A stretch of DNA of 64,000 nt from an uncultured Gammaproteobacteria bacterium (GCA_964512695.1 CAZEJU010000003.1:9897-73896); one strand, 5' to 3'. Positions 8,698 through 63,790 are shown, counted from the stretch's first letter. Program-made: numbers and translations. The notes: generated by a model from the letters alone, not told the origin.

Positions 8698-9858
8698 ATG
8701 AATATATATAAAAAAGTTTCGTTATTTCTTCTCATAATCATCCTCAGCTTCATTAATGTTCGAATTTCGTATGCTGCAACAGTTAAAACAGGGGACAGTA
8801 TTTACCTTTCTGAAGAGAAACAATACGAAGATCTTTATCTTTTTGGTAGTACGATTACAGCTGAAGCACCTATAAAGAATGATCTTATTGCTGCCGGAGG
8901 AGAAGTAACTCTTAATGGAGATGTAACAGGCAGCTTAATGGCTGCCGGGGGTACTCTTACTATACGTTCAAATGTTGATAACACAATGCGTGTAGCAGCT
9001 GGAGATGTTATTATAAGCGGAACTATCACACGTGATGTATTGATAGCCGCGGGTGTAGCTCGTATTACTAAAACTGCATCTATTAGCGGTGACTTAATCT
9101 TTATAGGCAGTGAGTTAGTAGTCGAGGGCACTGTAAAAGGGAAAGTAAATGCAACGGGTGAACAAGTAACAATTAATAGTCGTGTCGGTTCTGTAGAAGG
9201 CAATATGGGTTTACTAACCCTTGGGAAAAAAACAATAATAGAGAAAGAGCTTCGGTATTCTTCGCCCACGAAAGCAGCAATTCATGAATCCGCAACTATT
9301 CAAGGAAAAACCTACTATTCAGCGGTTAAACAAGAACCTAAAAACACACAAGGTATTTTAAGAGCTTTCACTCCAGGTGCGCTTTATACTTTATTCCTTG
9401 ATATGTTGCTTTCGCTAGGAGTTGTAGTCTTCTTACCAAATTTCGTTAAAAAAATAATAGCAACTTTGTCTAAATCCCCTCTTAATTCTGCAGGAACAGG
9501 TTTCTTCTTTGTTATTTTCTGGCCGCTTCTTAGCCTGGTTATGCTCTTTCTTCTCTGGTTATCTCTCATTTCATTTCTTTTTTATGCACTTATTCTTATT
9601 ACTAGTATTTTCTTAATGAAAATTGTCGTTGGGTGGCGACTTCTTAAATGGTGGCATATGCATCAAAAAACCACAGAAAAGTATCAAATAAATAGCTGGA
9701 AAACAGCAGTAGTTGGATCAATCGCTGTGTATATACTTATGCTTATACCTATTATAGGTTGGATTATCCTTATATTTATTTATCTTTTGACTGTAGGAGC
9801 TACTGTAAAAGCATTCCTTTCCTTTGTCCAATCATCTAGGATCAGTAACAAAAAATAA
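8698..9858 (+). CDS. secreted beta-helical repeat protein (bactofilin/DUF583-like G-rich repeats) with C-terminal multi-TM anchor
   Basis: Signal peptide MNIYKKVSLFLLIIILSFINVRISYA. Repeated (V/I).G.V.G.(L/I) units (AAGGEVTLNGDVTGSLMAAGGTLTI...AAGDVIISGTITRDVLIAAGVARI). Four hydrophobic helices at the C-terminus. Confidence 0.45.
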   Translation: MNIYKKVSLFLLIIILSFINVRISYAATVKTGDSIYLSEEKQYEDLYLFGSTITAEAPIKNDLIAAGGEVTLNGDVTGSLMAAGGTLTIRSNVDNTMRVAAGDVIISGTITRDVLIAAGVARITKTASISGDLIFIGSELVVEGTVKGKVNATGEQVTINSRVGSVEGNMGLLTLGKKTIIEKELRYSSPTKAAIHESATIQGKTYYSAVKQEPKNTQGILRAFTPGALYTLFLDMLLSLGVVVFLPNFVKKIIATLSKSPLNSAGTGFFFVIFWPLLSLVMLFLLWLSLISFLFYALILITSIFLMKIVVGWRLLKWWHMHQKTTEKYQINSWKTAVVGSIAVYILMLIPIIGWIILIFIYLLTVGATVKAFLSFVQSSRISNKK

Positions 9859-41661: not shown

Positions 41662-41900
41662 GGGTGCATTGTAACAAAATCATTCTCAGTTTAAAATAAA
41701 ATAAAAAGAGCTTTACAAACTCCTCAAAAACACCTATTCTTTTCCGCTTATAAATGGGATATACCTAACGTAGCTTTGCATGGAAAAATCAACTTTCTTT
41801 TTCTGGAAGCTCTAGGTTCGAGAAGATATACCAATTATTGCAAAAACAAATCGCAGTGGTATAGACTGGAAGTAGGTCCGTTCATTCGGACTTATCTGTT

Positions 41901-42440
41901 ATGGCAAAAGATATCCTGTCCATCAATTTGCTAGATGATAAACAAAAAAGCTTTACTGACACTATTCTCGACTGGGCAATTTATATCGGCCGTTTACTTG
42001 TAATTATTACTGAAGCAGTAGCCTTATTCGTTTTTATTAATCGCTTTACGCTGGATAGAAAGCTTATCGATCTTCATGATGAAATTAAGAAGAATCAATC
42101 CTTTATAGGATATATGCAAAGTCGTGAAGAAATATACAGAGGAATACATGAAAAACTACAAACGAACTTTATCAGCAGTACAGACAACGATGAAAGAATA
42201 ATCCTCTTTGAAGAACTTACTAGTAATGTGAATCCTCAGTTAAGTATTCTTAGCTTCTCAGTAAATCCTTCTTCTTTAACCATTGCGGTACAAGCACGTT
42301 CTATACAAGCGCTTTCTGATTTCCATGAAAAAGTAAAACAACACCCATCCATCGCTTCAATTACCGTCGATAAAATAGAAAATAAGACAGCAAACGCCAT
42401 AATTCTTGTTTCCTATACGGCAAAGCTAAAAGCTAAATAA
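41901..42440 (+). CDS. PilN-like type IV pilus assembly protein
   Basis: N-terminal INLL(D) motif followed by a single TM and an about 120-aa periplasmic domain, of typical PilN length. Confidence 0.5.
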   Translation: MAKDILSINLLDDKQKSFTDTILDWAIYIGRLLVIITEAVALFVFINRFTLDRKLIDLHDEIKKNQSFIGYMQSREEIYRGIHEKLQTNFISSTDNDERIILFEELTSNVNPQLSILSFSVNPSSLTIAVQARSIQALSDFHEKVKQHPSIASITVDKIENKTANAIILVSYTAKLKAK

Positions 42441-42442
42441 TT

Positions 42443-43057
42443 ATGATATTTTTTAAACAAACTTTTTTAAAGGATTTCGCAAAAGAGAGGTATATGGCAA
42501 TTGTACGTGCGTATCCTCGACTCCAGGAGGATAAAACACAACGATATATTCTACTAACGTTGACGTTCCTAGCTTTATCATTTTTAGGAATATTAGCTAT
42601 AAATCCAACACTAAAAACTATTACAGAGTTAAATAAGAAACTCGAGGATAGTGAATTTGTTAATCAGGCCCTTAAAACAAAACTTGCTAATCTCTCTTCA
42701 TTAAATAGTCAATATGAACGTATGTCTACTGATATACCTCTTATTGAAGCAGCTGTACCTAGTTCTGCTCAAGCGCCTTTCCTACTGGGACAATTACGAA
42801 CACTGGCAAAGACTACTGATGTAACAATTACCAGTCTTCAAACATACCAAATCAACATGACACAACAGAAAATTACTCCACCTAGAACTGTTAATTTTAT
42901 CTTTACCTTAAGTATAGAGGGTGAAAAAAGTAACTTAGTAGATTTTCTTCATGCTTTAAATTCATTTGATAGAACTGTCGTTATTGAGTCATTACATTTT
43001 ATAAGTGAGGAAGAACAACGCTTAACAATTCGCGCAAAAGCATTTTTCATACCATGA
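42443..43057 (+). CDS. PilO-like type IV pilus assembly protein
   Basis: Short cytoplasmic N-terminus, one TM, a coiled-coil, then a C-terminal domain ending LVDFLHALNSFDRTVVIESLHF...RLTIRAKAFF, typical of PilO. Start overlaps the PilN-like stop. Confidence 0.45.
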   Translation: MIFFKQTFLKDFAKERYMAIVRAYPRLQEDKTQRYILLTLTFLALSFLGILAINPTLKTITELNKKLEDSEFVNQALKTKLANLSSLNSQYERMSTDIPLIEAAVPSSAQAPFLLGQLRTLAKTTDVTITSLQTYQINMTQQKITPPRTVNFIFTLSIEGEKSNLVDFLHALNSFDRTVVIESLHFISEEEQRLTIRAKAFFIP

Positions 43058-43410
43058 AAAAAAGGAAATATACAATTCAAAAAGATCTGACGATCTTGTC
43101 ATTTTCTCTGTTTGTAGTAGTTACACTATGGATCGCATTTACCATACACGGAATCTATGTCACAAGCACTATTAGTGATACATTGCAAATACAGATAGTT
43201 CCTATTAAAGGTGTTTTTGATGAATCCAGTATAGAAATTATCAAAAACAGAACTCCAATAATTCCTGATTATTCCGCAAGTGTATCAGCAAATACACTCC
43301 GTATTAATGCTTTACCTATTGATCAACCGCAACCAACGTCCGAAGTAACTCTTACACCAACTGATGTATTTTTACCGAATAGTACATCTAGCGCAGAGCC
43401 ATCCTTATGA
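43054..43410 (+). CDS. small single-TM protein (PilP-like position)
   Basis: Translationally coupled (4-nt overlaps on both sides); no motif. Confidence 0.35.
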   Translation: MKKRKYTIQKDLTILSFSLFVVVTLWIAFTIHGIYVTSTISDTLQIQIVPIKGVFDESSIEIIKNRTPIIPDYSASVSANTLRINALPIDQPQPTSEVTLTPTDVFLPNSTSSAEPSL

Positions 43411-44870
43411 AACCAACAATCTTGAATAAAAAAATACCATCATATCTTGGATTTCTATCACTAATTTTAATGATACCCATAATTGCGTGGATAGTCGAAA
43501 ATAATACTGTCGTACCCGTCAGAGCAAACCCGGATCATACACCACAAGATGTACAGATTAGTAACATTACTGACAACTCTTTTACTATCTCTTATACAAC
43601 AATTGAAGCTACTATCGGTTCTGTCTCATATGGACCGACAGACAAACTGGGTCAAATAGCATTTGATATTCGAGATACCGCTCGTGGAAAACCATTACCT
43701 CACCGAGTCCATTATTTCGACATAAAAGGTCTTCAACCTAATACAACGTATTACTTCATATTACTGTCTGGTAATACGACGTATAAAAAAGACAATAAGC
43801 CATACGCTATAACCACAGGGCCAACTCTCTCCCAGACACAAACTAGTAGAAAAATCGCAGGAAACGTTTTGCTACCAAACGGCAGCTATCCTGGAGAGAC
43901 AGTTGTATATGCAATAAGTAGTACTTCACAACTTCTTTCAAAACTGGTAGAAGTAGACGGATCTTTCTCCATAGATAATTCATCCCTACGAACTAGTACG
44001 CTTGATTCGTATGCGGAAGAACAAGAAACTGCAGAGTTTCAAATACGTTTAGTAAACAGTGATATGCAAACGTACATGAATGTTTTATCGAAAGATCTAG
44101 ATTCACTCCCTACGGTTACTCTGTCGAAAAACTATGATTTTACTTATGAATTACTTCCTACTAAATCACTGGACAACAACGTAAATCTCTTAGATACCGC
44201 AGAGCTTTTCCCAGAATATTCGACAAATACTACGTTTAGCCAAACTCCTCAGATTATAGTGCCAAAGAAAGATCAAGCATTTGATGATCTCCAACCGGAA
44301 TTCCGTGGATCTGCTCCCCCTTCTAAAAATATCGAAATTAGTTTTGATACAGCGACTACAAAAGTAACTGTAAGAACTACTGCAACAGGAACATGGTTAT
44401 ATAGACCAAAACAGCCAATGACAGCAGGTAATCATACGATTATCGTCAGCATGAAAGATATATCAGGCATGACGCTAACAACGTCTCAAACCTTTGCTAT
44501 TCATGCTATAGGTAGCCAGTTTTTTGCTCCATCACCAACTGTCTCTCCTACAGCAATACCATCTCCAAGTCCATCACTAAACCCATCACCTATAGCATCG
44601 CCTTCTGTATCACCTGCTCAACCATCAATATCGCCCTCACCTTCGATATCCGTAAGTCCCACAGTATCACCTATACTGTCACCCACGGAAATTCTTATAC
44701 CTTCACCAACGTTAATTCCTAGCCCTACACAAATAACAGTATCGCTTCCACCAGCATCTCCCGTACCTAGTCTGACGCCTACTGGTAGTGGTACTGCAGT
44801 CCTCACGTTTGGCTTTGCGCTATTTGCTACGATTACAGGTGTTGTGTTATTCTTTTTAACTCATACATAA
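43407..44870 (+). CDS. large cell-surface protein: N-terminal TM/signal, FN3-like domain, C-terminal Ser/Pro/Thr-rich repeat and C-terminal TM anchor
   Basis: VQISNITDNSFTISYTT...PNTTYYFILLSG (FN3-like). SPTVSPTAIPSPSPSLNPSPIASPSVSPAQPSISPSPSISVSPTVSPILSPTEILIPSPTLIPSPTQ repeat. Terminal hydrophobic helix. Confidence 0.55.
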   Translation: MKPTILNKKIPSYLGFLSLILMIPIIAWIVENNTVVPVRANPDHTPQDVQISNITDNSFTISYTTIEATIGSVSYGPTDKLGQIAFDIRDTARGKPLPHRVHYFDIKGLQPNTTYYFILLSGNTTYKKDNKPYAITTGPTLSQTQTSRKIAGNVLLPNGSYPGETVVYAISSTSQLLSKLVEVDGSFSIDNSSLRTSTLDSYAEEQETAEFQIRLVNSDMQTYMNVLSKDLDSLPTVTLSKNYDFTYELLPTKSLDNNVNLLDTAELFPEYSTNTTFSQTPQIIVPKKDQAFDDLQPEFRGSAPPSKNIEISFDTATTKVTVRTTATGTWLYRPKQPMTAGNHTIIVSMKDISGMTLTTSQTFAIHAIGSQFFAPSPTVSPTAIPSPSPSLNPSPIASPSVSPAQPSISPSPSISVSPTVSPILSPTEILIPSPTLIPSPTQITVSLPPASPVPSLTPTGSGTAVLTFGFALFATITGVVLFFLTHT

Positions 44871-44874
44871 ATCT

Positions 44875-46146
44875 ATGAATATAGGTATTATTGGAGCTGG
44901 ATTTACCGGACTATCAGCAGGATATCAACTTACAAAAAGAGGCCATTCAGTTACCATCTTTGAGAAAGATCTTCAACCCGGAGGACTAGCAATTGGTTAT
45001 AAGGAGAAAGAATGGGAATGGTCACTTGAGAAACATTACCACCATTGGTTCACAAACGATAAATTTATTTTAAACCTTGCGAGAGAAATTGGTCATAAAG
45101 TATTCATCCGTCGTCCAGAAACATCAGCATATATTGATGATAATATTTACCAACTTGATTCTCCATTAAAAGTATTACAGTTTCCACAACTTTCAATTGT
45201 TGATCGTGTTCGAATGGGAGTTGCATTAGCAGCTCTCCGGTATAATCCTTTTTGGCAGCCATTAGAAAAAATATATGCAGTTCCTGTATTAAGGGAAACA
45301 ATGGGAGAAAAGTCCTATAAAATGCTTTGGGAACCCCAACTTAAAAATAAGTTTGGTACGTATTTTAAAAATGTATCACTTGCATGGTTTTGGGCACGTA
45401 TAAAAAAACGAACATCATCACTTGCGTATCCGGAAGGTGGATTTTTACATTTTGCCGAACACCTTATCGATGTAATAAAAGAAAATGGAGGAAACGTAGT
45501 ATTTAATGCAGAGATTTCGGAATTAAGGGATGATGGACAAAAAACAACACTTATGAAAGAAAAAAAATTGCATACCTTCGATAAAGTACTCGTAACACTT
45601 CCGTCTGTTTTTTTTATAAATATTACTCCTCAACTTCCTAAAACTTATACTGATAAACTGACAAGACTAAAAGGTTTAGGTGCAACGAATCTTGTTTTAC
45701 GTCTTAACAAACCTTTTTTCAAAACGAAAACATACTGGCTAAGCGTTTGTGATACAACATCACCTATTATGGCAATCGTAGAACATACAAATTTTATGGA
45801 TAGAAAATATTACAATAATGAACATATCGTGTATTTAGGAAACTATGTTGGAACGACTCATCCATACTTTTCCATGACTGAAGAAGAAATGCTCGCACAC
45901 TTTCATCCATTTTTAAAGAAAATAAATCCAAAATACAAAGATTCGTTAATCAGTATGAAGCTTTTTAAAGCACCGTTTGCACAACCTATTATTCCTACTA
46001 ACTATTCTCGATTGATTCCCCCTATGGCGACTCCTTTAAAAAATGTCTTTCTTGCAAATATTGAACAAGTGTATCCTTGGGATAGAGGAACAAACTATGC
46101 AGTAGAGTTAGGTGAGAAAGTAGCAAAGCTTATTGTAAACGAATGA
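44875..46146 (+). CDS. FAD/NAD(P)-binding oxidoreductase (amine-oxidase / phytoene-desaturase / UDP-galactopyranose-mutase-like fold)
   Basis: N-terminal Rossmann motif IGIIGAGFTGLSAGYQL...VTIFEKDLQPGGLA. Confidence 0.6.
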   Translation: MNIGIIGAGFTGLSAGYQLTKRGHSVTIFEKDLQPGGLAIGYKEKEWEWSLEKHYHHWFTNDKFILNLAREIGHKVFIRRPETSAYIDDNIYQLDSPLKVLQFPQLSIVDRVRMGVALAALRYNPFWQPLEKIYAVPVLRETMGEKSYKMLWEPQLKNKFGTYFKNVSLAWFWARIKKRTSSLAYPEGGFLHFAEHLIDVIKENGGNVVFNAEISELRDDGQKTTLMKEKKLHTFDKVLVTLPSVFFINITPQLPKTYTDKLTRLKGLGATNLVLRLNKPFFKTKTYWLSVCDTTSPIMAIVEHTNFMDRKYYNNEHIVYLGNYVGTTHPYFSMTEEEMLAHFHPFLKKINPKYKDSLISMKLFKAPFAQPIIPTNYSRLIPPMATPLKNVFLANIEQVYPWDRGTNYAVELGEKVAKLIVNE

Positions 46147-46240
46147 ATTTTCCATTTTCCAAGTTTCATTTTCCAACAAATCAAGATTTGAAATTACTAA
46201 ATAATCAATGGCAAAATGAAAAATGACAAATGGAAAATTT
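46146..46240. repeat. imperfect palindrome (TTTTCCA/ATGGAAAA-type arms) spanning the annotated start of the first GT-C gene
   Basis: Left arm aattttccattttccaagtttcattttccaa. The reverse complement of the right arm is aaattttccatttgtcatttttcattttgcca. Confidence 0.6.
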
Positions 46241-47957
46241 CGGACAACAAATACAGCAGAAAACTACAATACTTCTTTTTATATTAATGTTAATTGGTGT
46301 TTTTCTCCGTTTCTATAATCTAAATTGGGGCGCTCCTTACTATTTTCATCCTGATGAACGAAATATTATCAGTTCAGTTACTCAGTTACGGTTTCCTGAT
46401 CAGACGAATCCACATTTTTTTGCGTACGGATCTATTCCTATTTATACCATTTATGGCATTGGAGTAATACAGAATATCGTGACTTCCTGTTTTTATAGTA
46501 CTCTATGTCCTATAACGAAACTTCTTGTAGAGAAACAAACCCCGCTCTGGAATGAAATAAATATTGTTACATTTAATGATGCAATACTTATAGCCAGGAG
46601 TATATCAGCATTTTTTTCTCTACTTCTTATTCCCCTTGTCTTTATTATAGGAAAAAAAGTGCATACACAGAAAACAGGATTACTAAGCGCTTTTTTTACA
46701 GTAACTAGTGTTGGGCTACTTCAATATGCACATTTTGCGACATTTGAATTATGGCTTACTTTCTTTAGCGTCTTAGCTTTGTATTATAGTCTAAAAATAG
46801 CTGGAGATCATCATACCGGTGATATATTAATTCTTGGCGTTCTTATGGGAATCTTAGTCGGTATAAAAATATCCAGCCTTGTACTTTTACCACTACCTTT
46901 TCTTGCTATTTTTTATGGATGTTTTAGGGACATAAAACTAGTAAAGAAAAATTTACCAATACTGGGTAAGACTGCGTTACTTTTTATGGCAGAAGCTCTC
47001 TGTTTATTGCTTTTAGGAGCGATCATATTTATGATAACTAACCCTTTTGTTCTCTTAGATGTAACCTCTTTTCAAGATTCAATAGACTATGAAGTTAGTG
47101 TCGCTAATGGATCTCTTATTGTTTTCTATAACCAATTATTTCGTGACACAATACCAGGCATTTATCAGCTCTTCCATGTTTATCCCTTTCTCATTAATCC
47201 GCTTCTTACATTTCTACTTATTCCCACACTGCTGGTTACATTCTTTCTTAGTAAAAAAGAAAAAAATACTTCATTATTTTTTGTATTCCTCACTTTTATG
47301 ATCCTTTTCATATCCCAGGCTTTTCTGTTCGTAAAATGGGTACGGTATATGATTCCAACCCTACCATTTTTTTATGTGATGTTTTCAGTTGTAGTAATGA
47401 CAATATCAACCAATAAAAAATTTGCAGCTTATAGGAAGTATCTTATATTTTCTCTGGTTAGCATAAGTAGCATCTATACATTCTCCTATTTTGTCACAGT
47501 TATCGCCAAAGAGGATACAAGGTTACAAGCAAAAACATGGATTGAAAGATTTACAAGTACTAACAAAAAAGTTCTCAGTGAGTCGTATGATCCCGGCAGT
47601 ATGGCATTTACTGGAATCTTTTCTGAAATAACATATTGCAATATCTATGACCTTGAAATACACCTCAAGGTTTGTGAAGATGTTTCTTTAGAACATAAAC
47701 TGAAAGATGTAACATATATCTTATTACCTAGTGAAAGAGTTGTGCAATCTCGCTTAGTGAATAAAAAACGATTTCCCAGAGGATACAATTTCTATACATC
47801 CTTATTTACTGACAAAGAAAGTTATAAGCTTGTATACAAAACTCCATGTGACATATTCTGTAAAATTCTTTATATGGGTAATAAATTACTTCTTGAGCAG
47901 ACCGCTTATGTTTTCGATAGACCGACAGTTTATGTTTTCGAAAAAATTAAACAATGA
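46230..47957 (+). CDS. GT-C fold glycosyltransferase (PMT/ArnT, GT39/GT83-like), copy 1
   Basis: HPDERN in the first extracytoplasmic loop after TM1 and about 12 TM helices. Start may be downstream at the Met near 46290. Confidence 0.6.
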   Translation: MENFGQQIQQKTTILLFILMLIGVFLRFYNLNWGAPYYFHPDERNIISSVTQLRFPDQTNPHFFAYGSIPIYTIYGIGVIQNIVTSCFYSTLCPITKLLVEKQTPLWNEINIVTFNDAILIARSISAFFSLLLIPLVFIIGKKVHTQKTGLLSAFFTVTSVGLLQYAHFATFELWLTFFSVLALYYSLKIAGDHHTGDILILGVLMGILVGIKISSLVLLPLPFLAIFYGCFRDIKLVKKNLPILGKTALLFMAEALCLLLLGAIIFMITNPFVLLDVTSFQDSIDYEVSVANGSLIVFYNQLFRDTIPGIYQLFHVYPFLINPLLTFLLIPTLLVTFFLSKKEKNTSLFFVFLTFMILFISQAFLFVKWVRYMIPTLPFFYVMFSVVVMTISTNKKFAAYRKYLIFSLVSISSIYTFSYFVTVIAKEDTRLQAKTWIERFTSTNKKVLSESYDPGSMAFTGIFSEITYCNIYDLEIHLKVCEDVSLEHKLKDVTYILLPSERVVQSRLVNKKRFPRGYNFYTSLFTDKESYKLVYKTPCDIFCKILYMGNKLLLEQTAYVFDRPTVYVFEKIKQ

Positions 47958-49642
47958 CAAAATATATATCAAAAGAAAGAATTGTTTTTTTATTTATCTT
48001 ATTACTTGCAGCTTTTCTCCGATTTATAAATCTTGATTGGGATCAAGGACAACATTTACATCCTGATGAAAGATTTCTTACGATGGTGGTCAATAAAATA
48101 ACAATTCCCAAATGGTTTAATGAATATTTAAACCCATCTTTATCGAGTCTTAACCCTGTAAATAACGGGTTTGATTTTTTTGTTTACGGTTTATTTCCTC
48201 TTACGATAGCTAAATTCTTTGCAGTATGGACAAATAATGATACGTATGCAACATTTACAGTTTTAGGGCGATGTATCTCTGCTTTCTTTGATTTAATAGC
48301 GGTTATCCTTGTCTATAAAATAGTTGACCTTTTGGGGAAACATTCCAAGCTTCATCACCATACCAAATATTATGCAATGTTTTTCTATGCGATAGCAGTC
48401 CTTCCTATCCAGCTCTCTCATTTCTATGCATCTGATACTTTTTTAAATACTCTTTTTCTTTTTTCAGTATTCTTTATTCTGAAATTTTATTATTTCTCTT
48501 CTTATGCTTCTCTTATAGGTAGCGGGATATTCTACGGACTGGCGTTCTCTTCAAAGGTTAGTGCTATATATGGGGCACCTTTAATTGGTTTTTTTTTATT
48601 TTTCGGATTAGTAAAAAAGAGTTTTAAAGACAAAAAAAATATCCTGTATCTTCTCACTTCTACTTTTTTAACAACTATACTTTTCAGTATTTCGTGCTAT
48701 TTCACAGTAAGAATAGCTAACCCGTATATGTTTTCTTCAGCAAATCTTTTCGATCCCCGGATTAATCCTCAATTTTTTGAAAGTCTTAAGATGTTAAAAT
48801 CCTGGGAAGGCTACGACACTTGGTTTCCTCCAGCAATTCAATGGATTAATAAAATGCCTGTATTATTTAGTCTAATAAACATGGCTATTTTCGGAATTGG
48901 TATTCCATACTTTCTTCTAGTTCTTGCGGGCATAGCATATGTATTGACCAAGAAACGAAAAAGTATTCTTTTTATTCTCGTCTTTTGGTTTCTAGGTATT
49001 TTTATTTATCAGTCAATACAATTCGTGAAAGTAATGCGATATTTTATTTTTCTCTATCCATTTCTAGCGCTTTTATCTGCCATAGGGTTTCAACACCATT
49101 TGCAAAAACAAAAAAATATGATTAAAGGTACTATTCTTTTTATATGTTTTCTATGGCCTCTATCATTTATTTCAATTTACCTACATCCACACTCACGAGT
49201 AACAGCATCTACGTGGATTTATGCCAATATACCTAATAATAGTATCCTCTTAAGTGAATATTGGGATGATGCCTTACCACTACCTATCATGAGTCAGTCT
49301 AAACATTTTTTTGTAGAACAATTACATGTATTTGATCCAGACACTTCAGAAAAATGGCATGAGATGGAACGTCTTCTTTATCAAGCTGACTATTATATTT
49401 TATCGTCAAATCGCGCTTGGGGGAGTATTTCGACAGTTCCTGAGAAATATCCTCGAATGAGTAAATTTTATAAAGATTTATTCGCAGGAAAAACACAATA
49501 TATGAAAGTTCATGAGATAACTTCTTATCCCTCGCTTTCGTATCTAGGAATACCTATTACATTCATTGATGATTGGAGCGACGAATCATTTACTGTATAT
49601 GATCACCCGAAAGTTATTATTTTTAAAAATGTTGCTAAATAA
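47954..49642 (+). CDS. GT-C fold glycosyltransferase (PMT/ArnT-like), copy 2 (tandem paralog)
   Basis: LHPDERFL loop-1 motif and a polytopic membrane protein. 4-nt overlap with copy 1. Confidence 0.6.
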   Translation: MTKYISKERIVFLFILLLAAFLRFINLDWDQGQHLHPDERFLTMVVNKITIPKWFNEYLNPSLSSLNPVNNGFDFFVYGLFPLTIAKFFAVWTNNDTYATFTVLGRCISAFFDLIAVILVYKIVDLLGKHSKLHHHTKYYAMFFYAIAVLPIQLSHFYASDTFLNTLFLFSVFFILKFYYFSSYASLIGSGIFYGLAFSSKVSAIYGAPLIGFFLFFGLVKKSFKDKKNILYLLTSTFLTTILFSISCYFTVRIANPYMFSSANLFDPRINPQFFESLKMLKSWEGYDTWFPPAIQWINKMPVLFSLINMAIFGIGIPYFLLVLAGIAYVLTKKRKSILFILVFWFLGIFIYQSIQFVKVMRYFIFLYPFLALLSAIGFQHHLQKQKNMIKGTILFICFLWPLSFISIYLHPHSRVTASTWIYANIPNNSILLSEYWDDALPLPIMSQSKHFFVEQLHVFDPDTSEKWHEMERLLYQADYYILSSNRAWGSISTVPEKYPRMSKFYKDLFAGKTQYMKVHEITSYPSLSYLGIPITFIDDWSDESFTVYDHPKVIIFKNVAK

Positions 49643-53215: not shown

Positions 53216-55837
53216 ATGATTTCCAGTGACTTTTTATTTATTATTCAATGGTGGATTCTTCTTTTTCTCCTAGGCATTTTGTTCATACCTTTGACTGTGA
53301 AGCTTTTTTCTAACTTTTGGGATAAAGGATATGCTTTTTCTAAAGTTCTAGGTATCATTCTCTCAAGTTATACGATATTTCTTCTAGGCGTTCTAAAAAT
53401 AGTTCCTTTTACAACTTTCACTATTTACCTAGTATTTTTAGTCCTAGGTATTACTTTATTTGTCAAGTTCAGAAACTTTAGGCAAGAAATATTTGACAAA
53501 AAGATAATTAGGATCTGGTTTTTTGAAGAAATACTCTTCTTTTTGGGCCTTTGGTGGTGGTCTATAGTACGTGCATATAACCCTGAAATCTTTGGATTAG
53601 AAAAATATATGGATTTTGGATTTGTTAACACTATCCTTCGCTCAACATATTTTCCACCTATAGATATGTGGTATCCACCTGAACCCATAAATTATTACTA
53701 TTTCGGGCATCTCATGACAGCAGTCCTAACAAAAGCCTCAGCAATTCCTTCACACATAACTTACAATCTTATGATTGCTACACTTTTTGCTTTGACATTT
53801 ACTCAATCGTTTTCTCTAGGTAGTACCCTTATTAGAAAATTACATGATAAAACTTTTTCTATAAGAAAAGTAGTTCTAGGAGGAATACTCATTGCTTGTC
53901 TTATCACACTCGCTGGCAATTTACACGTTTTCTATGCATTTTTCAAACCATACGAAGCAGATAAACCAAAACCCTTTTGGGAACTAGAATTGTCTCTAAA
54001 AAATCCATGTTACCAAAAAGATTTTTATGAAAAAGATCTTGGTGACGGTACTTTTGAAACAGTTAACTGTTCTCTAGAAGATAAAAAAAAGGTTTCTTTA
54101 TTTCCAAATTCTTACTGGTATCCCAATGCTACCCGTTTTATTTACCACACTATTCATGAATTCCCTATATATTCTTGGGTAGTTGCAGACCTTCATGGAC
54201 ATGTTGCTGATATACCCACTGTTATTTTAAGTATTGCATTTCTTTTCGCTATTTTTCTTACTCATCAAGAAAAAATTAATAAAAAAGCATACACGAGATC
54301 CAAGAAGAATATCATTATTCATGTTTTAACTGTCAGTAAGGAATTTATATTTTTTGGATTTCTTCTCGCTATTATGTTTATGACAAATGCGTGGGATGCA
54401 TTGACATATCTTTTATTAGCGGGTTTATTGCTGCTGTATCTGCAATGGTATCGAACTGTTATTATAAAACAAGATAATATACACCCAGTACAGGTATTAG
54501 TTCCCTCTCTCAGTAACAAAAATCTGCAGAAATACTTCCATCACCATACTATTCTTAATATAGTAACTGGAGCAGCAGTTTATGGAATTGTAATATTATT
54601 TTCATTCTTTGTTTTTTCAAGACCATTTGCGATATTTTTTAATGCTTCTCAAATTGTGGGTGGTATAGGTGTACTTAATGTCCCTTCTTTTATGTTAGAA
54701 AAAAAATCTTTAGATCCTCAAAAAAAAGTCTACGGTCATGATCACCGTCCATTACTATCGAAAATAATTCTACCTGACCACTGCAGGAGTTTATTAACTC
54801 CTGAAGAAACAGATCTAATAACAACACAATATGAAACCAGAAAGATTGGGCCGTTTCTTTTTGAACCAGATCACTGTCTTCGTTCACCGTGGTGGCAATT
54901 ATTAATACTCTATGGATTTTTTTATTTTTTTGTAATTTCTCTAGGATTATTTCTTTGGAAAAAACAAAAAAATATTACTGATATTTTTATCTTTCTTCTT
55001 ATTATTGCTTCTTCTTTGTTAATTATTATTCCTGAGTTTTTTTACATGAAAGATATTTATCCTGATCATTATAGAGCTAACACTATGTTCAAGCTCGTCT
55101 TTCAAGCCTTTATCATGCTTTCTATCGTTTCAGGTTATACAATCTTCCGCATACTTTCTAAGAAAGATCTTTTACGAGCTTCTTTATATCGTAGAACTGC
55201 CTATGTACTTTTTCTTCTATGCTCGACGATTCTATTAACACTTGTATTTACCTATCCGTATTTTGCCATAACTTCTTACTATGCTGGTTATAAAGAGGAT
55301 ATCGATAAAACTATATGTACTACTTTCTCTCCTTATCTTATCTTTATGAAAATAATGACGAAGGAAGAACAGGAAAAATGTTCTTTGAAAACGTCGAAAT
55401 ACATTGGACTGAATGGTTTAATCTATTTAAAAAATCGAAACCTAGTTGATAAAGATGAAGATTTTAAAGCTATTATGTGGTTTAATCAACAAATCAAAGG
55501 TCAGCCTTTCATTCTTGAAGCACAAGGAGATTCTTATTCTGAATATCAACGTATATCATCAAATACTGGACTACCTACTGTTCTTGGATGGTATGTTCAC
55601 GAATGGTTATGGAGGGGAGAAAGCACACCTAAGCCTCGTGCAGATGATATTAAAACATTATATGAATCAGTTAATATACCTGAAACAAAACAATTACTTG
55701 AAAAGTATAGTATTCAATATGTTGTTATAGGTCGGCTGGAGAAAGAAAAGTACGCTAACATCTCTGTTCAAAAGTTTAAAGAACTGGGAAGGGAAGTGTT
55801 CAAAGTGGGGGATACGGTTATTTATGAAATTTTATAG
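53216..55837 (+). CDS. large polytopic membrane protein of the YYY-motif (Chlor_Arch_YYY/DUF2298-like) family; putative glycosyltransferase or polymerase
   Basis: 873 aa with more than 15 TM helices. WYPPEPINYYYFGH motif and a C-terminal soluble domain. Confidence 0.45.
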   Translation: MISSDFLFIIQWWILLFLLGILFIPLTVKLFSNFWDKGYAFSKVLGIILSSYTIFLLGVLKIVPFTTFTIYLVFLVLGITLFVKFRNFRQEIFDKKIIRIWFFEEILFFLGLWWWSIVRAYNPEIFGLEKYMDFGFVNTILRSTYFPPIDMWYPPEPINYYYFGHLMTAVLTKASAIPSHITYNLMIATLFALTFTQSFSLGSTLIRKLHDKTFSIRKVVLGGILIACLITLAGNLHVFYAFFKPYEADKPKPFWELELSLKNPCYQKDFYEKDLGDGTFETVNCSLEDKKKVSLFPNSYWYPNATRFIYHTIHEFPIYSWVVADLHGHVADIPTVILSIAFLFAIFLTHQEKINKKAYTRSKKNIIIHVLTVSKEFIFFGFLLAIMFMTNAWDALTYLLLAGLLLLYLQWYRTVIIKQDNIHPVQVLVPSLSNKNLQKYFHHHTILNIVTGAAVYGIVILFSFFVFSRPFAIFFNASQIVGGIGVLNVPSFMLEKKSLDPQKKVYGHDHRPLLSKIILPDHCRSLLTPEETDLITTQYETRKIGPFLFEPDHCLRSPWWQLLILYGFFYFFVISLGLFLWKKQKNITDIFIFLLIIASSLLIIIPEFFYMKDIYPDHYRANTMFKLVFQAFIMLSIVSGYTIFRILSKKDLLRASLYRRTAYVLFLLCSTILLTLVFTYPYFAITSYYAGYKEDIDKTICTTFSPYLIFMKIMTKEEQEKCSLKTSKYIGLNGLIYLKNRNLVDKDEDFKAIMWFNQQIKGQPFILEAQGDSYSEYQRISSNTGLPTVLGWYVHEWLWRGESTPKPRADDIKTLYESVNIPETKQLLEKYSIQYVVIGRLEKEKYANISVQKFKELGREVFKVGDTVIYEIL

Positions 55838-61889: not shown

Positions 61890-62330
61890 CTATTTAGCAG
61901 TCGCTTTCGTCTGGTGAAAAATATCTGCTATTTCATCCACTGCCCTGACTAATTCCTGAGCAGCTTCTTTATTCACTTCTTGCTTATTTTTCGAGACTAG
62001 TTTCATTGCTTTCCAAAATTTATCGTGTAAATGGGGAAATTTTTCGAGGTGTTCAGGCTTAAAATAATCAGCCCATAATATCATAAGTTCTTCTTTACAT
62101 TTCCGTCCATGCTCTTCTTTCGTCCAAATAGCTCTTATTAATTTATTTCTATCGTTTAGCGATTTAGTTGATTGGTCAACACTTTCAATAATCTCAACCA
62201 TTTTTAATATAGTGGCAGCAGCATTCTGTGCTATTCCCGGATCATATATACCACAAGGAACATCACAATGTGCATATACAGTTTCTGAAGGAAGAAAATT
62301 TATGACTTTACGTAATATAGTATGAAACAT
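61890..62330 (-). CDS. sodN: nickel-containing superoxide dismutase precursor
   Basis: Ni-hook HCDVPCGIYDP directly after a 20-aa propeptide. LWADYFKPEHLEKFPHLH block conserved with Streptomyces NiSOD. Confidence 0.85.
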   Translation of the reverse strand: MFHTILRKVINFLPSETVYAHCDVPCGIYDPGIAQNAAATILKMVEIIESVDQSTKSLNDRNKLIRAIWTKEEHGRKCKEELMILWADYFKPEHLEKFPHLHDKFWKAMKLVSKNKQEVNKEAAQELVRAVDEIADIFHQTKATAK

Positions 62331-62740: not shown

Positions 62741-63790
62741 ATGTATATGTCTAAAAAAGTTAAAAAGCGGTTAAAGGCTACTTCATCTAAAAGGCTTTTT
62801 CGATCACGGGGTTTTATCGCTGATTTCGCAATTATCATTCTAGCTGTGGTCTTAGGTATTTTCTTAATAGGCAACCTATTTCCAAAAATCCCAAGCTCTT
62901 CTAATCCACTTGATCAGTATGAAATCGATGCCACTATAGATCCTACAGTCCATAATAATCTACAGTTAAAAACATTTAAATTCCAAAAATGTTTAGCTTC
63001 CATCGCAATTAGCTTCTTAATTGATCAATCAGGGTCTATGGACGACTTTATTAACCGTGCAGATCGCTCAAAAGGAACGAAATTAGCCAATTTACAGACA
63101 GGCCTCCGATATTTTGCAAGTAGATTTCCTGATAAAGGAGCTATAGCTTTACAAATTCATAAAACTAATAGTGACTGGCCGATCCCAATAAAGTATAACC
63201 AACTACTCGTAGATTATGGCTATTTCCAAGATAAAAAAACACAATTTTTACAGCAAATTGCTGGCTTTTCGCCGCTAGGAGCTACTTATTCGAAAGATGC
63301 GTTTACCGAACTGAAAACAAATCTTTTTAGAGCTATCGATAGTAATATATTCCCTAATTCATATAAATTTGCAGTTGTTTATATTTCAGACGGTATCCCG
63401 GAAACTGCAGAAATGAATAACAAATATTTCAATCCGACTGCAGGGCTTGGAGGATCTTTATGTAATCCAATAGATGCCACCGACACTGCGTTAGGTGTAC
63501 GTTGTACTCCATATACAAATGTACGAACGAATAGATCTTCCTGTCGTTGTTTAGACCCTAACCAGGACCCTAGAAGCGTAGCAGATGAAATAAAGGCCAG
63601 AGGAATACGCATATTTACTATACGCTACATAGGTGACGCTGATGGTTATTTCGACGACGATTTACAGCGCATTATGGAAGGAATCGCAACAACACCCCAA
63701 GATGCCTATGTCGCTCCTCTTAATGAACAATTAGATAAAGTAATCGACCAAATCGCTACGCGAGCCTGCTCAACACTTAGTCCTCTTTAA
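62741..63790 (+). CDS. membrane-anchored von Willebrand factor A (VWA) domain protein
   Basis: N-terminal TM, MIDAS motif LIDQSGSMDD, Cys-rich C-terminal region. Confidence 0.65.
   Translation: MYMSKKVKKRLKATSSKRLFRSRGFIADFAIIILAVVLGIFLIGNLFPKIPSSSNPLDQYEIDATIDPTVHNNLQLKTFKFQKCLASIAISFLIDQSGSMDDFINRADRSKGTKLANLQTGLRYFASRFPDKGAIALQIHKTNSDWPIPIKYNQLLVDYGYFQDKKTQFLQQIAGFSPLGATYSKDAFTELKTNLFRAIDSNIFPNSYKFAVVYISDGIPETAEMNNKYFNPTAGLGGSLCNPIDATDTALGVRCTPYTNVRTNRSSCRCLDPNQDPRSVADEIKARGIRIFTIRYIGDADGYFDDDLQRIMEGIATTPQDAYVAPLNEQLDKVIDQIATRACSTLSPL

Follow-up and report, generated by a model that had tools for sequence, protein, structure and literature searches.

How is a type IV pilus held, and how does it pass through the wall, in a bacterium that has neither outer membrane nor secretin? 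This open question (PMC6916266) is raised again by four plus-strand genes in a stretch of 64,000 nucleotides (nt; the whole stretch is hereafter the window) titled as an uncultured Gammaproteobacteria bacterium (GCA_964512695.1 CAZEJU010000003.1:9897-73896), where a PilN/PilO pair is encoded together with a small membrane protein and a surface protein that carries a sorting signal. The best explanation that we can offer, and one that we regard as evenly poised between right and wrong, is that this operon supplies the PilN/PilO pair of a pilus machine, encoded apart from pilM, pilB, pilC and pilT, along with two lineage-specific partners that would link the pair to the wall. An earlier note on this DNA, made from the sequence alone, had placed four open reading frames (ORFs) here, and all four were confirmed:

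41901-42440, plus strand: ORF1, PilN, 179 amino acids (aa), from Pfam, a profile match in the PDB, an AlphaFold2 (AF2) model and Foldseek
42443-43057, plus strand: ORF2, PilO, 204 aa, from Pfam and a profile match in the PDB
43054-43410, plus strand: ORF3, an orphan bitopic protein of 118 aa, from alignments and profile searches
43407-44870, plus strand: ORF4, a surface protein of 487 aa with an LPXTG-like sorting signal, from an AF2 model and homologue alignments

The three junctions had been described as overlapping stops and starts. Read from the sequence, this is correct for PilO/ORF3 and ORF3/ORF4, which are both ATGA overlaps, so that ORF3 is overlapped at both ends, but the PilN stop (42440) and the PilO ATG (42443) are separated by a 2-nt spacer and do not overlap. 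By hydropathy, the transmembrane helices lie at aa 25-47 of ORF1, 34-55 of ORF2, 11-37 of ORF3, and 10-32 and 462-486 of ORF4, in agreement with the earlier description of ORF1 as a single-pass protein with an INLL motif and of ORF3 as a single-pass protein of 118 aa.

Two parts of ORF1 are central to its identification:

41919-41933, plus strand: SINLL motif, aa 7-11, cytoplasmic, from the sequence
ORF1 aa 97-176, plus strand: ferredoxin-like domain, preceded by the transmembrane helix (aa 25-47) and a long coiled-coil helix

ORF1 scores 26.7 bits against Pfam PilN (PF05137, cut-off 22.8), and a profile of its family (23 homologues) matches Myxococcus xanthus PilN in PDB 3jc8 with E = 9e-6. 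The best 120 of the 590 matches to the PilN profile all carry PF05137 and are cassette-type PilN throughout. The AF2 model, built from 52 homologues, has a predicted local distance difference test score (pLDDT) of 82 and consists of helices at 18-92, 97-107 and 135-146 and strands at 114-121, 125-132, 151-162 and 167-176, that is, a transmembrane helix, a long helix and an alpha-beta-beta/alpha-beta-beta domain. The top Foldseek matches of this model are periplasmic domains of GspL, namely PulL (5hl8, TM-score 0.77), EpsL and XcpY, at TM-scores of 0.6-0.77 and a root-mean-square deviation (rmsd) of about 2 Å, and these are followed by PilO (5uvr) and Thermus thermophilus PilN (4bhq); over all matches the TM-score is 0.55-0.77 and the rmsd mostly 2-3 Å, up to 3.8 Å. 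By its profile matches and its modelled fold, ORF1 is therefore a genuine PilN with the ferredoxin-like fold of GspL, PilN and PilO, as the earlier note had proposed; the note had added that a model without such a fold would speak against the assignment, and the fold is present in the model. Near the N-terminus, 76 of 80 distinct PilN homologues have the motif [ILVF]N[LF][LIVM], which in 41 is followed by Pro (xNLxP), while N9 and L10 of ORF1 are invariant in a six-sequence alignment. An INLL(P)-type N-terminal peptide of PilN binds PilM in characterised systems (PMC6916266).

ORF2 is divided as follows:

ORF2, conserved cytoplasmic N-terminus of ~33 aa
ORF2 aa 34-55, transmembrane helix
ORF2 aa 75-199, PilO domain

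Its score against Pfam PilO (PF04350) is 31.6 bits, with a cut-off of 22, and its family profile matches the PilO proteins of M. xanthus (3jc8, E = 7.8e-5) and Pseudomonas aeruginosa (2rjz, E = 0.004). Weaker matches were obtained with T2SSM_b (E = 7e-4) and with NCBIfam GspM (34 bits, under its cut-off), and homologues of ORF2 carry the JGI name 'Tfp pilus assembly protein PilO'. The Pfam score and the PDB profile matches thus bear out the earlier description of ORF2 as PilO-like, and they identify it as a genuine PilO. When the PilN and PilO profiles were compared with each other no mutual similarity was detectable, implying that the pair is not a recent duplication. The cytoplasmic N-terminus of PilO (residues 1-33, 42443-42541) is unusually long and highly conserved, with several invariant residues and the consensus KDFAKERY..VR..PRL.E.KTQ.Y, which suggests that this segment may bind a separate partner in the cytoplasm.

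The four genes form a conserved unit. A scan of species-representative genomes with a 10-sequence ORF4 alignment gave 108 matches, from which 80 loci were fetched; the scanned loci come from Levy-, Woese-, Pace-, Blackburn- and Cerribacteria and from unclassified Microgenomates. When hidden Markov models (HMMs) of the four proteins were run on 90 sources, PilN was detected in 84, PilO in 85, ORF3, which sits between pilO and orf4, in 82 and ORF4 in 88. The order pilN-pilO-orf3-orf4 is kept in 76 of 88 loci, the exceptions being mostly contig ends or failures of ORF calling, and all three loci that were picked via PilN alone show the identical order. The median gaps along the row are 0, -1 and -4 nt, ORF3 and ORF4 overlap by 1 or 4 nt in 65% of loci, and the operon is kept at ORF4 identities down to 25-27%, with differing flanks. 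This agrees with the earlier view of the genes as a unit within a lineage of the candidate phyla radiation (CPR): the unit is tightly coupled and belongs to the Microgenomates group. In an exhaustive search of representatives with the ORF4 profile, 97 of the best 150 matches are single-stretch and full-length (439-515 aa, E <= 1e-138), and the other 53 are giant Big_13-repeat proteins. Giant Big_13-repeat adhesins swell the totals of this search (15,941 / 6,811 / 2,577), and therefore only the full-length single-stretch count is usable.

Full-length ORF4 homologues (420-540 aa) are named from Candidatus Levyibacteriota, a lineage of the Microgenomates group of Patescibacteria according to NCBI, and the source organism of the operon is taken to be a Microgenomates (Levyibacteriota-like) bacterium. 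About 35 of the 80 species-representative contigs (L010-L089) are titled 'uncultured Gammaproteobacteria', 'Pseudomonadales', 'Lysobacterales' or 'Methylomirabilota'; such titles look like taxonomic mislabels because these contigs carry the same Microgenomates-type operon and neighbourhood. In one locus labelled Paceibacterota (L057:4176-5573), an ORF4 homologue stands straight after a divergent MurJ gene with no PilN, PilO or ORF3 between them, and this locus indicates that ORF4 can exist without the pair.

The first of the two partners, ORF3, has a simple layout:

ORF3, basic N-terminus
ORF3 aa 11-37, transmembrane helix with a conserved Trp
ORF3, variable Pro/Ser/Thr tail

Next to the membrane, an ecto-segment of ~30 aa is conserved (TSTI...QI.PI.G.FD...I..K.R). 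The earlier note had suggested a comparison of ORF3 with PilP, and in our profile searches neither PilP nor GspC was matched; the 33-member family profile of ORF3 has no match in Pfam, NCBIfam or the PDB, and its N-terminus has no Cys able to form a lipobox. PilP and GspC were therefore rejected as identities of ORF3, which gives no sequence signal for either and has an ectodomain too small for an HR domain. With no profile match, no lipobox and a length too short for the HR domain of PilP or GspC, ORF3 is not a PilP homologue.

The second partner, ORF4, is a chain of beta-sandwiches between two hydrophobic helices:

43434-43502, plus strand: N-terminal hydrophobic helix, aa 10-32, a signal peptide or signal anchor, preceded by an NKKIPS motif
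43539-43817, plus strand: domain 1, an FN3-like beta-sandwich, aa 45-137, pLDDT > 90
43851-44147, plus strand: domain 2, a second beta-sandwich, aa 149-247, pLDDT ~86-95
44250-44501, plus strand: domain 3, Big_13 Ig-like, aa 282-365, a Pfam match, pLDDT ~84-93
44523-44771, plus strand: Ser/Pro/Thr-rich disordered linker, aa 373-455, pLDDT < 50
44772-44864, plus strand: C-terminal sorting signal, with LTPTG at aa 456-460, a hydrophobic helix at aa 462-486 and the end ...LTHT

The overall pLDDT of the ORF4 model is 75. Domain 1 scores slightly under the Pfam cut-offs both for fn3 (24.3 bits, cut-off 25) and for Pur_ac_phosph_N (24.2 bits), PF13620 is annotated in several homologues of the protein, and domain 3 scores 35.8 bits against Big_13 (cut-off 27). 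A PGNHTITI motif is conserved in domain 3, where both ORF4 alignments show G341 and H343 as invariant, and the 10-sequence alignment N342, T344 and I345 as well. The linker is ~85 residues long and is disordered over aa 376-461 in the model; aa 373-461 are 28% Pro, 26% Ser and 10% Thr with 15 SP dipeptides. A true tandem repeat was rejected here: Tandem Repeats Finder detects just one weak 24-nt x2 repeat, so the linker is low-complexity sequence and not a regular repeat. Of the earlier picture of a giant protein with an N-terminal anchor, an FN3-like domain, a repeat linker and a C-terminal transmembrane helix, the architecture stands, but the regular repeat and, at 487 aa, the word giant do not. 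Homologues are full-length at 420-540 aa. Foldseek matches are to generic tandem FN3/Ig arrays (contactins, fibronectin, SlaB, SbsB, SiiE and MpIBP) and to these alone, and a pilus-specific or secretin-like fold was rejected for ORF4. A pilin was likewise rejected, since the G-F-T-L-x-E pilin signature is absent from the N-terminus, and no recognisable binding domain was found in the protein.

Both ends of ORF4 carry conserved features. After the first helix, A40 is nearly invariant and P46 invariant, a pattern compatible with cleavage by signal peptidase, and we suppose that the signal peptide may be cleaved. Just before this helix, 45 of 82 homologues (Levybacteria type) have the motif x[KR][KRQ][IL]P[TS], which is absent from Woese- and Pace-type homologues and recalls, by position, the YSIRK-type signal-peptide motifs of Gram-positive surface proteins. 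At the other end, the printed C-termini of 82 non-redundant homologues, read by eye, share [LVIT]-P-x-[TSA]-G-[NSD] ahead of a hydrophobic helix; the Gly (G460) is invariant, the variants include LPPTG, LPKTG, VPKTG and LPVAG, and Arg or Lys is found in the C-terminal tail of 61 of the 82. To judge from these C-termini, the family has the tripartite layout of sortase sorting signals. In the window protein, LTPTGSG abuts the last helix and the chain ends in LTHT without a basic tail, making it a weak variant of the signal; the earlier note had called LTPTGSG LPxTG-like but non-canonical, and LTPTG can now be placed as one variant of a family-wide sorting signal. The TIGR01167 anchor model matches weakly in 3 of 30 family members (best E = 0.029). 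No sortase gene was found in the window or flanks, where the TLxTC-type regular-expression matches were spurious. If the first helix is cleaved, the domains would lie outside the wall, and if it is kept, ORF4 would be a tether from membrane to wall.

Where, then, are the other pilus genes? In none of 88 loci is pilN preceded by pilM; the gene upstream is S20, MurJ, fusA or an unrelated one. In six frames, no GspE/PilB/PilT-type Walker A motif was found in 1.63 Mb (the window and 89 loci), and within ~10 kb of the operon the 89 loci showed neither a PilM/FtsA phosphate-1 motif nor a canonical pilin N-terminus, nor any motif of PilC or PilD type. Within the 64-kb window, no GspE/PilB-type Walker A motif occurs in six frames, and no called ORF has a PilM/FtsA phosphate-1 motif or a canonical GFTLxE-type pilin N-terminus. 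These searches were motif scans, which divergent proteins could escape. The Pfam lists of 12 neighbourhoods and the unassigned conserved clusters contain no pilus core gene either. The statement that this is not a classical type IV pilus operon is thus borne out for 89 + 3 loci, whose motif scans or Pfam tables show no sign of pilM, pilB/pilT, pilC or a canonical pilin nearby; the companion statement that PilM, secretin and pilin are missing is true of the locus. The earlier note had also held that its pilus reading would fall if homologues of the cassette were never linked to pilus genes in other genomes, and in the literal sense of physical linkage none is so linked in 92 loci. By that yardstick the pilus link is weakened, because no core pilus gene lies near the operon.

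Pilus assembly in monoderms cannot do without PilM, PilN and PilO (PMC6916266). The closed Microgenomates genome Ch65 has one type IV pilus (T4P) locus with PilA, minor pilins, PilD, PilB, PilT, PilC and PilM (PMC7143001); its description lists neither PilN nor PilO, the supplements hold no pilus gene table, and the genome encodes a sortase (PMC7143001). Because the PilM-binding peptide is kept in our PilN and the Ch65 locus lists PilM without PilN and PilO, the simpler reading is that the operon supplies the PilN and PilO of the pilus machine. PilN and PilO are already known from CPR genomes and are routinely counted in pilus inventories, and in Saccharibacteria pilM, pilN and pilO are kept alongside pilB and pilC (PMC11623550). 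In the literature searched, the strict, group-wide coupling of the pair to an orphan bitopic protein and a sortase-signal beta-sandwich protein appears to be undescribed, as does the separation of the PilN/PilO operon from the other pilus genes. For host attachment and DNA uptake, CPR bacteria are thought to rely on type IV pili.

On this explanation, the operon would be encoded away from the locus of pilM, pilB, pilT, pilC, pilD and the pilins, and ORF3 and ORF4 would be produced in a constant ratio to PilN and PilO. PilN and PilO would form their usual membrane heterodimer, with cytoplasmic PilM docking on the INLL(P) peptide of PilN, and ORF3 may bind and stabilise the pair, a PilP-like role without PilP ancestry. 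ORF4 would be exported by Sec, its linker possibly O-glycosylated by the PMT-type and LCP enzymes encoded nearby, and the group's sortase, an enzyme described as 'near ubiquitous in Microgenomates' (PMC6744442), would then join it to peptidoglycan. Together, ORF3 and ORF4 could couple the pilus platform to the wall, or else mark or guide the point at which the filament passes through it, a task proposed for the PilO extension of Firmicutes and carried out in diderms by PilP, PilQ and TsaP. In the long PilO of Firmicutes, the C-terminal part is unexplained; a role as wall anchor, or as an aid to the filament in crossing peptidoglycan, has been speculated for it (PMC6916266). We offer it as a tentative proposal, which we doubt more than we believe, that ORF3, as a small bitopic adaptor, and ORF4, as a sortase-anchored and probably glycosylated beta-sandwich rod, are wall-level parts of a monoderm pilus machine that fix the PilM/N/O platform to peptidoglycan or form the passage of the filament through it; equally tentative is the corollary that they functionally replace PilP, PilQ and TsaP with unrelated proteins and form a split-gene counterpart of the Firmicutes extension. 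They are two concrete candidates for the wall role, in an operon conserved in a CPR lineage with a near-universal sortase, and if pilN and pilO lie apart from the other pilus genes in this lineage, the reading of CPR pilus inventories is affected.

Several points weigh against this explanation. Our data are loci, and the presence of pilM in this organism and of a pilus locus without its own pilN and pilO is assumed, just as contact of ORF3 and ORF4 with PilN and PilO is presumed. No core-pilus signature lies within ~10 kb of the operon in the 89 motif-scanned loci, and the Pfam tables of the three PilN-selected loci list no pilus core gene. The Ch65 description (PMC7143001) may just omit unannotated pilN and pilO genes, and T4P components, PilN and PilO among them, are described as lying together in numerous CPR genomes (PMC6744442). 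ORF4 has no pilus-specific fold, its window copy lacks the basic tail typical of classical sortase substrates, and locus L057 carries ORF4 without PilN, PilO or ORF3. Finally, if the ORF4 helix is cleaved, the globular domains would be beyond the wall, far from the membrane-level domains of PilN and PilO.

What surrounds the operon is a conserved cell-envelope block that includes MurJ, LCP, PMT and FemAB genes. By number of loci, the conserved neighbours are MurJ (66), S20 (51), LepA (50), an LCP enzyme (40) and an FAD oxidoreductase (38), and others are PMT_2 glycosyltransferases, DUF2298, FemAB, UvrD and HrcA-GrpE-DnaK-DnaJ; in Pacebacteria-type loci, MurJ is directly upstream of the operon on the same strand. 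This setting, with no pilus gene adjoining the operon in 92 loci, is what one would expect if a PilN/PilO-derived membrane scaffold had been co-opted for a job outside the pilus, such as wall synthesis or assembly of surface glycoproteins, with ORF4 as its client or partner. There is a precedent, since PilMNO homologues have been co-opted in flagellar cages and in Helicobacter pylori, and recruited to flagellar motors in Campylobacterota (PMC10823254; bioRxiv 10.1101/2023.04.27.537399). We consider co-option unlikely, although not strongly so. The whole block, S20, LepA and HrcA-GrpE-DnaK-DnaJ included, is inherited vertically as a unit, and adjacency to MurJ or LCP is therefore weak functional evidence; moreover, PilN keeps its PilM-binding peptide, and the lone described Microgenomates pilus locus lists PilM without PilN and PilO, so that its machine would miss essential parts if the operon served another purpose (PMC7143001). 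Should the pilus link prove wrong, the operon would be another case of PilN and PilO recruited to a different envelope task.

The earlier note had suggested that the genes could represent a CPR-specific adhesion or host-attachment apparatus; taken as self-contained and independent of pili, this would make PilN, PilO and ORF3 the envelope-spanning base for an ORF4 stalk. ORF4 is indeed built like Gram-positive adhesins or S-layer stalks, with FN3/Ig domains in tandem, then a long linker and an anchor at the C-terminus, SiiE, MpIBP, SlaB and SbsB are among its fold matches, the operon is conserved and lineage-restricted, and further sorting-signal proteins follow ORF4 in Woesebacteria-type loci. 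However, the protein is a generic three-domain rod without a recognisable binding domain, its length and domain order are conserved group-wide, unlike those of fast-evolving host-specific adhesins, display of sortase substrates needs no PilN/PilO, and the cytoplasmic PilM-binding motif, kept in 76 of 80 PilN, would be left without a role. A stand-alone adhesion apparatus is thus less likely than the reading as PilN and PilO of a pilus, and we hold it to be improbable. Very improbable, in our view, is the reading in which ORF3 and ORF4 are envelope proteins of an ordinary kind that have a transcript but no function in common with pilN and pilO: CPR genomes are compact with many overlapping genes, and the transcript seems to run on into oxidoreductase and glycosyltransferase genes without an obvious pilus link, but the gene order and the 1- or 4-nt overlaps survive phylum-level divergence (ORF4 identity 25-27%) while the flanks change.

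ORF1 and ORF2 belong to the same families as the proteins of the type IVa PilM-PilN-PilO(-PilP) complexes of P. aeruginosa, M. xanthus and T. thermophilus and share with them the bitopic build of coiled coil and ferredoxin-like domain, modelled for ORF1 and presumed for ORF2, as well as the INLL(P) peptide of PilN. Unlike those complexes, the operon has no adjacent pilM, no nearby pilB, pilC or pilins, and neither PilP nor secretin, an orphan bitopic protein and a sortase-signal protein standing in their stead. With the monoderm type IVa pili whose PilO is long and bifunctional, as in Streptococcus sanguinis (PMC6916266), it shares a monoderm-type envelope without secretin and an extra extracytoplasmic module joined to PilO function, but the PilO of the operon is of canonical size (204 aa), the extra module consists of two coupled genes, and one of these carries an LPXTG-like signal. 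In type II secretion, the counterparts are GspL, GspM and GspC: the ORF1 model is closest to GspL periplasmic domains, ORF2 weakly matches T2SSM_b and GspM, and there, too, the pair is followed by a third small bitopic protein, whereas ORF1 lacks the cytoplasmic domain of GspL, neither an HR nor a PDZ domain is present in ORF3, and the operon is accompanied by neither secretin nor GspE. The flagellar PilMNO homologues of Campylobacterota likewise are PilN/PilO-type proteins away from a pilus operon, but CPR bacteria have no flagella (e.g. Ch65, PMC7143001), and the partner here is a predicted wall-anchored rod.

The relation of ORF4 to Gram-positive sortase-anchored proteins is one of layout, comprising an export helix, Ig/FN3 domains, a Ser/Pro/Thr linker and [LVIT]PX[TSA]G with its helix, and LCP, PMT and FemAB genes are present in the conserved neighbourhood of the operon. 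In contrast to classical LPXTG proteins, such as those with Pro-rich wall-spanning regions, the motif is degenerate, the LTPTG of the window has no basic tail, and TIGR01167 matches weakly. We know of no sortase-anchored surface protein that is co-transcribed with PilN and PilO. In Actinomyces oris, an LCP enzyme reportedly glycosylates GspA before the protein is anchored to the wall.

The operon is bordered by the following features:

41662-41900, plus strand: intergenic region and presumed promoter region of pilN, a 239-nt gap after a divergent EamA transporter gene
44875-46146, plus strand: FAD-dependent oxidoreductase of the PRK07233 family with an amine-oxidase fold (NCBIfam PRK07233, 414 bits)
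46230-49642, plus strand: two PMT_2-type membrane glycosyltransferases (Pfam PMT_2, 28.1 and 28.4 bits, cut-off 26.1)

The promoter of the operon may lie in the upstream gap, where two weak sigma-70-like sites (41669-41697 and 41712-41740) are seen at a frequency not above that in shuffled sequence. Downstream, the oxidoreductase gene begins 4 nt past the ORF4 stop, with no terminator-like site seen between them, and it follows ORF4 in 38 of 88 loci. Because of the 4-nt gap and the lack of such a site, the transcript probably runs past ORF4, so that the oxidoreductase is probably co-transcribed with the operon and the transcript probably reaches the two PMT_2-type glycosyltransferases as well (44875-49642). 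The latter, which are conserved neighbours across loci, could be considered candidate enzymes for glycosylation of the Ser/Pro/Thr linker of ORF4.

In Woesebacteria-type loci, more surface proteins are encoded 3' of ORF4 on the same strand (L052:11339-13316, L053:11308-17394, L049:11509-13907, L057:5585-9336 and others like them). One family among them combines a transmembrane helix with a Thr/Pro linker and, at the C-terminus, an LP(V/D/K/Q)AG motif that precedes another helix, and a second is Cys-rich and has a 'QQQDIREKA' motif conserved next to the membrane; except for a weak dockerin match, these proteins have no Pfam family.

The wider gene order in the window (~30000-62000), as in most loci, is S20 / LepA / HrcA-GrpE-DnaK-DnaJ, with MurJ, LCP, TIM, UvrD and FemAB, and it resembles the rpsT-lepA-hrcA-grpE-dnaK-dnaJ region of Firmicutes. 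In the clade of the window, fusA and the EamA transporter gene take the place of S20 and MurJ upstream of pilN. Elsewhere in the window, a bactofilin-domain protein with a multi-helix membrane C-terminus is encoded at 8698-9858, and an 873-aa DUF2298 / chlor_Arch_YYY membrane protein (465 bits) at 53216-55837. At the window edge (62741-63790) stands a vWA-domain protein, a weak Pfam match, whose N-terminal 'RSRGFIADFAIIILAVV' segment bears a loose likeness to a pilin leader, without the canonical Glu5. Close by, at 61890-62330, a small protein has an N-terminal HCDVPCGIY motif that, by eye only, resembles nickel superoxide dismutase.

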